Assembly (NCBI RefSeq): GCF_003334815.1
Contig: NZ_QOWO01000015.1
Direction: 5' to 3' (one strand)
Source: Escherichia coli
GTDB lineage: Bacteria; Pseudomonadota; Gammaproteobacteria; Enterobacterales; Enterobacteriaceae
Length of the DNA stretch: 64,000 nt
Part shown: in pieces, positions 2,157 through 25,161 of the stretch
Numbering within the stretch: position 1 is the stretch's first letter
Layout of the letters: each line of letters begins with the position of its first letter
Translations under genes and position numbers: made by a program
Notes under the pieces: generated by a model
What the model saw: only the letters and a program-made list of their open reading frames with translations
Told to the model about the DNA's origin: nothing
The model's database searches: none

Positions 2157-2227
2157 TTCGAACCCCCGATACGTTGCCGTATACACACTTTCCAGGCGTG
2201 CTCCTTCAGCCACTCGGACACCTCACC
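2140..2227 (-). tRNA. serX: tRNA-Ser (anticodon GGA), 88 nt with long variable arm
   Basis: Reverse complement GGTGAGGTGTCCGAGTGGCTGAAGGAGCACGCCTGGAAAGTGTGTATACGGCAACGTATCGGGGGTTCGAATCCCCC...CACCGCCA; T-loop GGTTCGAATCC, CCA end, GGA anticodon. Confidence 0.95.
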
Positions 2228-2421
2228 AAATTGTCGTTCCTGTCTTGCTGGAACGGGCGCTAATTTAGGGAAATCATGACCTGAGGTCAACAAACTTTTT
2301 GAAAAAATCGCGCGTTTATTCAAACTTCAATCAATGTGTGGTTTTAATAAGCGAAATCTGCTTTTTTTGCCACCGACCACGGATTTGTTATGCTGGTGGC
2401 CTTTGTAGATCATAATGATAA

Positions 2422-3399
<978 letters not shown>

Positions 3400-23054: not shown

Positions 23055-23621
23055 TTATACTCCATAGTCAGATGACGACTTTCCCAGCATGCGCTTCAGA
23101 GTGTCGTCTTTATCGATGAAATGATGCTTCAGGGCCATAAATCCGTGCATAACGGACAGTACTACGACGCTCCACGCGAGCCAAAAATGCAGGGCACCGG
23201 CAAAGTCTGCCTGTGCGCCAGCGTCGGCAAGGGTCGCGGGGACGTCAAACCAGCCAAAAACGCTGATCGGTTTACCATCGGCAGTTGAGATCAGATAGCC
23301 GCTGATGCCGATGGCGAAAAGCAATAGGTACAATGCGAGATGTCCAGCTCTTGCGGCAAGACGAGTCATGGGCGAATAACTCGGCAGCGGACCCGGCGGT
23401 GGAGATATGACACGCCACAGAACGCGAATAACCAGCCCCATCATTAACAAAATACCGATGCTTTTATGCAGTTCGGGTGCTTTGTGATACCAGCCATCGT
23501 AATAACTGAGCGTGACCATCCACAGACCTAAAGCAAACATGCCGTAGACAATAATTGCGCTTAGCCAATGGAAGGCCGCAGATATAACACCATAGCGTTC
23601 AGGGGTATTTGTGAATGACAT
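23055..23621 (-). CDS. yceJ: Cytochrome b561-family membrane protein YceJ, 188 aa
   Basis: ORF 23055-23696; ATG at 23619-23621 gives MSFTNTPERYGVISAAFHWLSA... Confidence 0.85.
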   Translation of the reverse strand: MSFTNTPERYGVISAAFHWLSAIIVYGMFALGLWMVTLSYYDGWYHKAPELHKSIGILLMMGLVIRVLWRVISPPPGPLPSYSPMTRLAARAGHLALYLLLFAIGISGYLISTADGKPISVFGWFDVPATLADAGAQADFAGALHFWLAWSVVVLSVMHGFMALKHHFIDKDDTLKRMLGKSSSDYGV

Positions 23622-23881
23622 AAGTGCATCCAAAACGAATTTGCGAGAGAAAGAAAATGGCGTGTCGGAGAATGAATTGCAACACAAAAATAACAAATTG
23701 AATGATATTTATTTTTATTTCAATAATTTTGAATTAATAATGAAAGAATCTTCATAAGTTTAGTGGGTTCAGCATCAGAGATGTCTGGTGAGTGCTGTAG
23801 AAGCAGGAATAATCTCATTCAATTTTTCACGCTAAATGAAAGGGAGATTAAATATTTGTCAGTTTATGTCAGTGCGGAAAA

Positions 23882-24022
23882 CTAAAAATAAAACACATAG
23901 ATCAGATCCATAATTGCCAACAATCCCCAGAGAAAAAGATAAAGCATCAGATGCTCGCGAATATTATTGATGAGATAGTGCAACAGCCGACGCATTAAAT
24001 ACTCCTGTAAAAACGGCCTCAT
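23882..24022 (-). CDS. yceO: Small hydrophobic protein YceO, 46 aa (below the ORF-track size cut-off)
   Basis: Manual translation of the minus strand: [46 protein letters not shown]. Confidence 0.7.
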
Positions 24023-24042
24023 TCTGGAGGCCGTAATGATGA

Positions 24043-25161
24043 TTATTGGAAGCGGGAAAGCCTGAATGGCGTCAAATCAAAATCGCTTTTTTTGTCTTGC
24101 GCAAAATCGGCAGCTATTTCCCCTAAAACTGACGCAAATTTAAAACCGTGCCCACTCAGGCCGGTAATGAGCAGTGTATTATCGTGGCCGGGTAGGGTAT
24201 CGATAATAAAATCTTCGTCAGGCGAATTATCATAGGTGCAGGCAGCGCCGTACAGGCAGCAACCGATACCCGGCAATACATTGCGCAAGAACGGGAAGGC
24301 TTCTGACCCATCACTGGCCACTTCCGCAAACGGAACACGTTCATCCGCTGAATGGATAACCTGGCCTCCGTTATGTTTGCCAATCTTCAACGCGTCGTTT
24401 TCTGCCGGAAAACCATAATATTGATCGCCATTGGGCAGTTCACCGGTAAACGCCGGGAATTTATTCTTCACGCTATAGCGGCCATCGGCCTGATACCAGG
24501 CAAATACTTTGCGTACGGGCTGGACAGGCAGCTCCGGGAGCAGGTCTTTTACCCATGTTCCCGCGCAGACAATCGCTTTTTTCGCCTGATGCTCACCGTC
24601 AGCCGTTTCAATAGTTACGCCATCATCGTCATGACGAATTGCGGTGACCGGGCAGTTGAACAGTTGCGCACAGCCCGCTTCCTTCGCCAGTTGGATCCAG
24701 GTTTTAATCGCCAGTTCGCTGCGCAAAAAACCGGAATCAGTTTCAAATAAGCCGATGTAGTTGTCCGGGACGCGTATTTCCGGCCAGCGGGCCATAATCC
24801 CTTGCGCATCGAGCTTTTCAACGTTGAGTTGCCATTGTTCGGCGCTGTGGGCGACGTTGGCGAGAAATGTGGAATCAGCCGGGCCAAGGTTAATGACGCC
24901 AGAGCGTACAAAAATGGGATCTTCTTCGTTGTGGCGGGAGAGTTCATCCCACAGCGTTTGCGCGCGGAGGACCAGCGGGACATACTTTTCGCCTTCACCA
25001 TAAGCATGGCGAATTAATCGCGTATCGCCGTGGTGGCTGCCGTGTTGATGCGGTGGCATATGGGCGTCGGTCATTAGCACGTTTAAACCGGCGCGGGTTG
25101 CATAATACCCGGCGGCAGCGCCTACGGAACCGCTGCCAATAATGATGAGATCGTATTTCAT
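24043..25161 (-). CDS. solA: N-methyl-L-tryptophan oxidase SolA (FAD-dependent), 372 aa
   Basis: Translation [25 protein letters not shown]... (FAD-binding GxGxxG). Confidence 0.95.

Follow-up and report, generated by a model that had tools for sequence, protein, structure and literature searches.

The 64,000-nt stretch of DNA analysed here (the window) belongs to the Escherichia coli chromosome and carries on its minus strand the gene order pyrC-dinI-bssS-solA-[yceO]-yceJ-yceI-trhO. Between solA, which lies upstream on that strand, and yceJ, which lies downstream, an ORF listing with a minimum of 20 amino acids returned an ATG-initiated ORF of 46 codons (23882..24022, minus strand). The listing reproduced exactly the translation quoted in a preliminary description of the locus, which had placed a 46-amino-acid minus-strand ORF between the two genes, had called it yceO and had attributed its absence from the ORF track solely to its size. 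The default cut-off of that track is 60 amino acids. The name was correct as well: the ORF is 100% identical to the annotated yceO (b1058; 141 nt, 46 amino acids), found at the same site between solA and yceJ in NC_000913.3, the curated MG1655 record, where the product is named ‘DUF2770 domain-containing protein YceO’. Pfam PF10968 (DUF2770) matched the 46-amino-acid form with E = 3e-22 and a score of 78.7, with all of the model (1–36 of 36) aligned to residues 10–45. Counted from the first model position, the protein starts with MRR and has 37 amino acids, within the approximately 36–39 amino acids of the family. No NCBIfam model matched either the 46- or the 37-amino-acid form, and the PDB held no relative of YceO even at E ≤ 10. 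We identify the locus as yceO, a genuine gene, annotated before, that encodes a very small DUF2770 family protein. What is new is its start, which probably lies nine codons later than in both the preliminary description and the curated K-12 record (Table 1).

Table 1. Features of the yceO locus, in window coordinates
Feature	Position	Strand	Basis
yceO CDS, conserved form: 37 codons and TAG stop	23882..23995	-	PGAP CDS on identical DNA; PF10968; conserved frame
Nine-codon upstream extension, MRPFLQEYL	23996..24022	-	Part of the curated MG1655 model and of the ORF in the preliminary description; probably 5′ UTR (U-tract and Shine–Dalgarno) and not coding
GC-rich hairpin, probable solA intrinsic terminator or attenuator	24013..24034	-	ΔG −14.0 kcal/mol; conserved; compensatory changes
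Shine–Dalgarno sequence AGGAG, 6 nt upstream of the second ATG	24002..24006	-	Anti-Shine–Dalgarno duplex −6.9 kcal/mol
Hydrophobic C-terminal half (L16–F37 of the 37-amino-acid form), predicted transmembrane helix	23882..23950	-	Kyte–Doolittle 2.05; AlphaFold2 helix 2–36; alignment

Within E. coli, a 501-nt query around yceO matched 5,425 of 5,426 complete genomes. A 181-nt query for yceO matched 5,415 of the same 5,426, with 5,024 at ≥99% identity, and all 60 rows sampled across this ranking carried a CDS annotated as ‘YceO family protein’ or ‘DUF2770 family protein’. The median copy number across the complete genomes was one place per genome. yceO is thus core in E. coli.

To look beyond the species, we used a genome-collection scan seeded with SolA, which gave a comparative set of 56 loci from Enterobacteriaceae (58 loci at the tblastn stage). 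By tblastn, a YceO-like frame was present 50–140 nt past the solA stop codon in 54 of the 58 loci. The genera with yceO after solA include Escherichia, Citrobacter, Salmonella, Kluyvera, Kosakonia, Leclercia, Yokenella, Pseudocitrobacter, Pluralibacter and Siccibacter, and the frame follows solA in approximately 52 enterobacterial species. In these 54 loci, and in divergent members of the family, the gene sits directly 3′ of solA in the dinI-bssS-solA block; even the most divergent DUF2770 members tested were still found in this neighbourhood. When 1.84 billion representatives were searched exhaustively with a profile, only 57 DUF2770 clusters came back, all of them small proteins or gene-caller fusions. 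Together with the kept neighbourhood, this low number marks DUF2770 as a narrow, vertically inherited enterobacterial family. The SolA-seeded scan also returned a 492-nt contig with 0.75x coverage (locus L057, NZ_JAHZMO010000143.1) in an assembly of the Firmicute Terrisporobacter petrolearius; its SolA fragment is 98% identical to that of E. coli and is almost certainly a contamination of that assembly.

The association of yceO is with solA and not with the genes that follow it. In Kluyvera, Pseudocitrobacter, Yokenella and Pluralibacter, yceJ-yceI are not downstream and a convergent gene abuts yceO, but yceO stays with solA. We therefore rejected yceO as a member of a yceJ-yceI operon. A further reason is a conserved TGACA repeat, promoter-like in sequence, which begins right past the yceO stop codon and whose presence follows that of yceJ. 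The most divergent lineage (P0143, 41 amino acids; L059–L061, positions 2223–3126) has a gene for a 209-amino-acid GerE/LuxR-type regulator between solA and the DUF2770 gene; there, the small gene is followed by a convergent gene for an AI-2E transporter and by an RND pump gene.

The TGACA repeat is a tandem direct repeat, CTGACATAAACTGACA, at 23857–23872 on the minus strand of the window, 10 nt past the yceO stop codon, with the consensus CTGACA-N4-TTGACA and a 10-bp period. Across genera it was present in 38 of the 40 loci where yceJ-yceI follow and in 1 of the 14 where they do not, with three copies in one Enterobacter locus (L034). Elsewhere on the same strand of the 64-kb window, only one further match to the repeat was found. 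It looks like a promoter −35 element, a site of the kind bound by response regulators, or both, serving yceJ-yceI. The whole spacer between yceO and yceJ (23621–23881, minus strand) has a near-constant length of about 255–265 nt from Escherichia to Kosakonia and Leclercia and contains conserved blocks, for example TCAAAATTATTGAAATAAAAA, GTTGCAATTAAT and CGCCATTTTC, which suggests a long structured or regulated leader or promoter region of yceJ. The sole promoter-like match in the region, TTGAAT-18-AATAAT at 23698–23727, lies on the plus strand, directed toward yceO in antisense; one such match was found where 2.4 are expected by chance in this AT-rich DNA.

yceO is nevertheless dispensable in some lineages. 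Salmonella enterica subsp. arizonae CCUG 6322T has a TGA at the W23 codon (L028:5226–5228), leaving a truncated or pseudogenised yceO, whereas the gene of subsp. diarizonae is intact. In E. coli S9 (NZ_CP107122.1; L066:748–1574), an IS1 element removes the 3′ end of solA, the hairpin that follows it and the N terminus of yceO, and PGAP annotates the remainder as an incomplete DUF2770 pseudogene. Enterobacter sp. BIGb0383 (L034:5120–5200) keeps solA, the hairpin and the TGACA repeats and has no yceO ORF. Shimwellia pseudoproteus (L051:1610–1950) carries solA without yceO and has a different downstream neighbour.

We then turned to the DNA that separates solA from yceO. Eight nucleotides past the solA TAA begins a hairpin, ACGGCCUC-CAGAAU-GAGGCCGU, which reads from 24034 to 24013 on the minus strand and is followed by UUUU (24009–24012) or UUUUU. 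The E. coli stem has 8 bp (−14.0 kcal/mol). A hairpin was present in all 52 distinct upstream regions, with a mean energy of −14.6 kcal/mol compared with −5.1 ± 2.9 kcal/mol for dinucleotide shuffles, 6% of which reached the energy of the weakest real hairpin. Its distance to the start codon is 9–30 nt (51 nt in one Siccibacter locus). Stems vary by genus (GGCCUC/GAGGCC, GGCCCCG/CGGGGCC, GGCUCCGG/CCGGAGCC and GGCACAU/AUGUGCC), with compensatory changes across genera in five of the eight consensus stem pairs. The U-tract is weak in Kluyvera-type loci and, in the window, a terminator scan narrowly failed to call the hairpin, with only four U following the fully extended stem. Judged by its layout, the hairpin is a probable intrinsic terminator or attenuator of solA. 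That it persists after solA in the Enterobacter locus without yceO (L034) assigns it to solA.

This arrangement bears on how yceO could be transcribed. A consensus scan of 23500–24400 found no sigma-70-like promoter on the minus strand, and the gap from the hairpin to the Shine–Dalgarno sequence is too short to hold a promoter, so that every yceO mRNA has to start upstream and pass the hairpin. From this anatomy, yceO would probably be expressed from the low-level fraction of solA transcription that reads through. We favour read-through as the most parsimonious model and one in keeping with the very low level of the YceO protein. It is also possible, if rather doubtful, that yceO is transcribed from a promoter of its own within the solA 3′ end and that the hairpin is the 5′-UTR stem, a stabiliser or regulator, of a dedicated mRNA. 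Such a promoter would fit the retention of the hairpin in the Kluyvera group even with a poor U-tract, the appearance of yceO alone in transcriptome tables (including PMC8765455) and the one divergent lineage in which a GerE regulator gene separates solA from the DUF2770 gene, which must be expressed otherwise there. However, it is at odds with the empty promoter scan, with the terminator layout of A-tract, GC stem and U-tract in Escherichia and Citrobacter, and with the hairpin that outlasts yceO in L034; the scarcity of the protein, too, is what read-through predicts. The choice between the two is a sub-question, as a dedicated promoter would be compatible with the main model of yceO.

The region between the hairpin and the conserved frame also holds the question of the start codon. 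The curated MG1655 record and the preliminary description use ATG1 (24022), which gives 46 amino acids; ATG2 (23995) gives a product of 37 amino acids. In NC_000913.3, where the gene occupies 1119307–1119447, ATG1 lies at 1119447 and ATG2 at 1119420. On identical DNA from W3110 and from an MG1655 derivative, PGAP calls a CDS of 114 nt, or 37 amino acids, from ATG2, and the 36-position PF10968 model begins at the second methionine. Among 54 loci, all but one have ATG or GTG at the conserved ATG2 position. By contrast with this position, the upstream codons are poorly kept: 23 of the 54 loci have no in-frame ATG, GTG or TTG upstream before a stop codon is reached, and in 18 an in-frame stop falls nine codons or fewer before the conserved start. 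Only E. coli, Escherichia sp. MOD1 and E. albertii have an in-frame ATG nine codons upstream, apart from a coincidental one in Kluyvera georgiana; the ATG1 position reads TTG in three further Escherichia species, among them E. whittamii. Conservation of the frame in relatives, which the preliminary description had proposed as a check, thus holds for the 37-amino-acid core and fails for the nine-codon N-terminal extension outside Escherichia.

Ribosome-binding signals point the same way. The best anti-Shine–Dalgarno duplex has −6.9 kcal/mol for ATG2 and −1.7 kcal/mol for ATG1, and most loci carry a purine-rich Shine–Dalgarno-like element 4–9 nt before this conserved codon (1 nt before it in L048), although the element is weaker in the Kluyvera group. 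ATG1 (24020–24022) is part of the hairpin: its A and U come last in the loop, and the 3′ arm starts with its G, which is paired. RNA accessibility is not very discriminating between the two codons, with opening costs of 16.3 kcal/mol for the region of ATG1 and 12.4 kcal/mol for that of ATG2, as the region of ATG2 is itself partly covered by predicted local structure. Taken together, ATG2 is very likely the main native start of yceO, giving a 37-amino-acid product, and the curated 46-amino-acid gene model of MG1655 is probably nine codons too long.

It is unlikely that E. coli makes the 46-amino-acid protein from ATG1, whether as the product or alongside a second proteoform. This reading can draw on the frame, which in E. 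coli is free of stop codons for 27 codons upstream of ATG2, on the annotation in NC_000913.3 and on the retention of ATG1 in frame across most E. coli, including alleles with as little as 92% identity, as well as in E. albertii. Retention within Escherichia is, however, accounted for by what else the nine codons encode, namely the 3′ arm of the hairpin, the U-tract and the Shine–Dalgarno sequence. An 11-residue YceO peptide has been detected by mass spectrometry (PMC12529367), but solely from a pBAD24 clone of the 46-amino-acid ORF with the ribosome-binding site of the vector, and it is therefore uninformative on the native start. Moreover, no Shine–Dalgarno sequence precedes ATG1, which falls within the loop and 3′ arm of the −14 kcal/mol hairpin; three Escherichia species have TTG in its place, and in most other genera it is missing or behind in-frame stops; and both Pfam and PGAP begin at ATG2. 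Less probable still is a scenario in which a mutation in the hairpin loop created the in-frame ATG in E. coli and its nearest relatives, with a lineage-specific 46-amino-acid proteoform made beside the ancestral 37-amino-acid form (for example, if the ribosome terminating on solA melts the hairpin), or in which regulated read-through of the hairpin gates YceO synthesis under acid stress. Start calling at yceO has also failed elsewhere: the database ‘proteins’ P0117 and P0119 (87–145 amino acids), in which the SolA C terminus or upstream read-through is fused to YceO, begin far upstream of the conserved methionine and are gene-caller artefacts.

The 37-amino-acid form divides into two halves. 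Residues 1–15 are polar and basic with a net charge of +2, and residues 16–37 are hydrophobic, with a mean Kyte–Doolittle value of 2.05, and leave no C-terminal tail. AlphaFold2, run with a 35-sequence alignment, predicted one continuous helix over residues 2–36 (mean pLDDT 94.6), and its hydrophobic part (16–37) is long enough to cross a bilayer. The preliminary description of a hydrophobic protein with one transmembrane segment agrees with both results, the Kyte–Doolittle stretch corresponding to residues 25–46 in its numbering. Some E. coli alleles (P0036 and P0052) carry one or two extra ‘LY’ units through expansion of a CTTTAT repeat at L18–Y19 (23936–23944, minus strand), which lengthens the helix by two or four residues.

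In the same 35-sequence alignment (A3), N11, R13 and D30 are invariant, and N10, H15, Y19 and W23 are kept at ≥90%. The N-terminal residues form a conserved motif, NN[IV]REH, and the conserved positions of the hydrophobic half (Y19, L22, W23, L26, A27, D30 and Y33) fall on one helical face. The clustering on this face is modest: 106 of 5,000 permutations reached the observed helical moment (p about 0.02–0.07). In the alignment, the most conserved residues of YceO are polar (N10, N11, R13, H15 and D30) or interfacial aromatics (Y19 and W23).

By the positive-inside rule, the net charge of +2 at the N terminus predicts an N-in/C-out topology, and YceO is most likely an inner-membrane protein of this kind. 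Its basic N-terminal third (MRR to R13) would be cytoplasmic, residues 16–37 would span the inner membrane, and the C terminus would lie at the periplasmic face. An invariant aspartate in a short transmembrane helix suggests that this residue pairs with a partner protein or a cation. From this buried residue in a helix of 37 amino acids, we argue that YceO may pack against a larger membrane protein. By analogy with other small membrane proteins, its most likely role would be to modulate that protein. YceO has been labelled an acid-stress small protein (PMC8765455 and PMC12997748), the only link to a phenotype in the literature that we found; otherwise, papers list yceO in transcriptome or mutation tables without a mechanism.

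A short and very hydrophobic peptide with very low expression and a start codon beside an RNA structure could also resemble a type I toxin, or perturb the membrane, instead of modulating a partner. We consider this very improbable. Type I loci are mobile and often multicopy, whereas yceO has a median of one place per genome and a fixed syntenic site across genera. An Rfam search of 23400–24300 on both strands (E ≤ 1) returned nothing credible, with one spurious lncRNA match, and no known antisense or sRNA family overlaps yceO. PADLOC gave no match for YceO. Overexpression from pBAD for 2 h was used to collect cells, and the text reports no toxicity (PMC12529367). The invariant polar residues on one face of the helix, in addition, suggest specific packing.

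Evidence that yceO is translated comes from the pattern of its variation and from published detection. The length of the ORF alone is not beyond chance, because several non-genic ORFs of 47–55 amino acids occur in the same 3.3-kb stretch; it is on conservation and detection that we accept yceO as a real gene. Among 52 distinct yceO sequences, the summed column entropy was 26.0, 10.3 and 44.5 bits for codon positions 1, 2 and 3. The pooled pN/pS was 0.28 in the yceO frame, compared with 0.82 and 2.04 in the two shifted frames. The yceO frame was open in 51 of the 52 sequences; other same-strand frames were open in at most 10 and the best reverse-strand frame in 17. Insertions in E. coli yceO alleles are in-frame ‘LY’ units of 6 nt. 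The 37-codon frame from ATG2 is kept by purifying selection directly after solA throughout Enterobacteriaceae. At the protein level, the Storz laboratory detected chromosomal YceO-SPA by immunoblot, at a level at least 10,000-fold below that of pBAD-induced YceO, and listed YceO as positive by top-down mass spectrometry, while bottom-up workflows gave no YceO peptide from wild-type cells (PMC12529367). A reading in which the ORF is untranslated and its conservation is that of an RNA or DNA element (the solA 3′ UTR or the yceJ upstream region) can cite the chance frequency of such ORFs in the region and the missing bottom-up peptide, but it is effectively refuted by the coding signature (third-position-dominated variation, selection confined to the one open frame and in-frame 6-nt indels), by the tagged and top-down detection, and by conservation of the frame where the downstream neighbour differs.

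Overall, the locus is best explained, with good though not overwhelming probability, by a conserved and translated yceO that starts at ATG2, encodes a single-helix membrane modulator and is expressed by low-level read-through from solA. The result has little weight beyond annotation hygiene, with evidence against the 46-amino-acid MG1655 model as its by-product. yceO was hidden by a 60-amino-acid ORF cut-off, and such a cut-off conceals real genes. The shortening by nine codons, if true, affects synthetic peptides, mass spectrometry databases, tagging and deletion designs for YceO, and the 11-residue peptide used as a mass spectrometry target may not exist in native cells. N11, R13 and D30 offer concrete targets for mutagenesis.

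Set against the known members of its own family (YceO/DUF2770; PF10968, b1058), the gene in the window is identical in sequence, and the sole discrepancy is the length of the gene model, which is 46 amino acids in curated MG1655 and 37 amino acids in PGAP, Pfam and other genera. With the type I toxins Hok, Ldr, Ibs, TisB and ShoB, YceO has in common that it is a short, single-helix peptide, hydrophobic in character, whose expression is tightly limited; it differs from them in its fixed single-copy locus, the absence of a detected antisense RNA family, the lack of reported toxicity and its family-wide vertical conservation. AcrZ, MgtS, MgrB and CydX are characterised small membrane proteins of E. 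coli that modulate larger proteins. YceO resembles these and KdpF in having ≤50 amino acids, a single predicted transmembrane helix, low abundance and a stress-linked annotation. It has no sequence relationship to any of the five and is contained in no solved structure, and it stands apart from them by the unusual invariant aspartate in its hydrophobic segment and by having essentially no extramembrane C-terminal tail.
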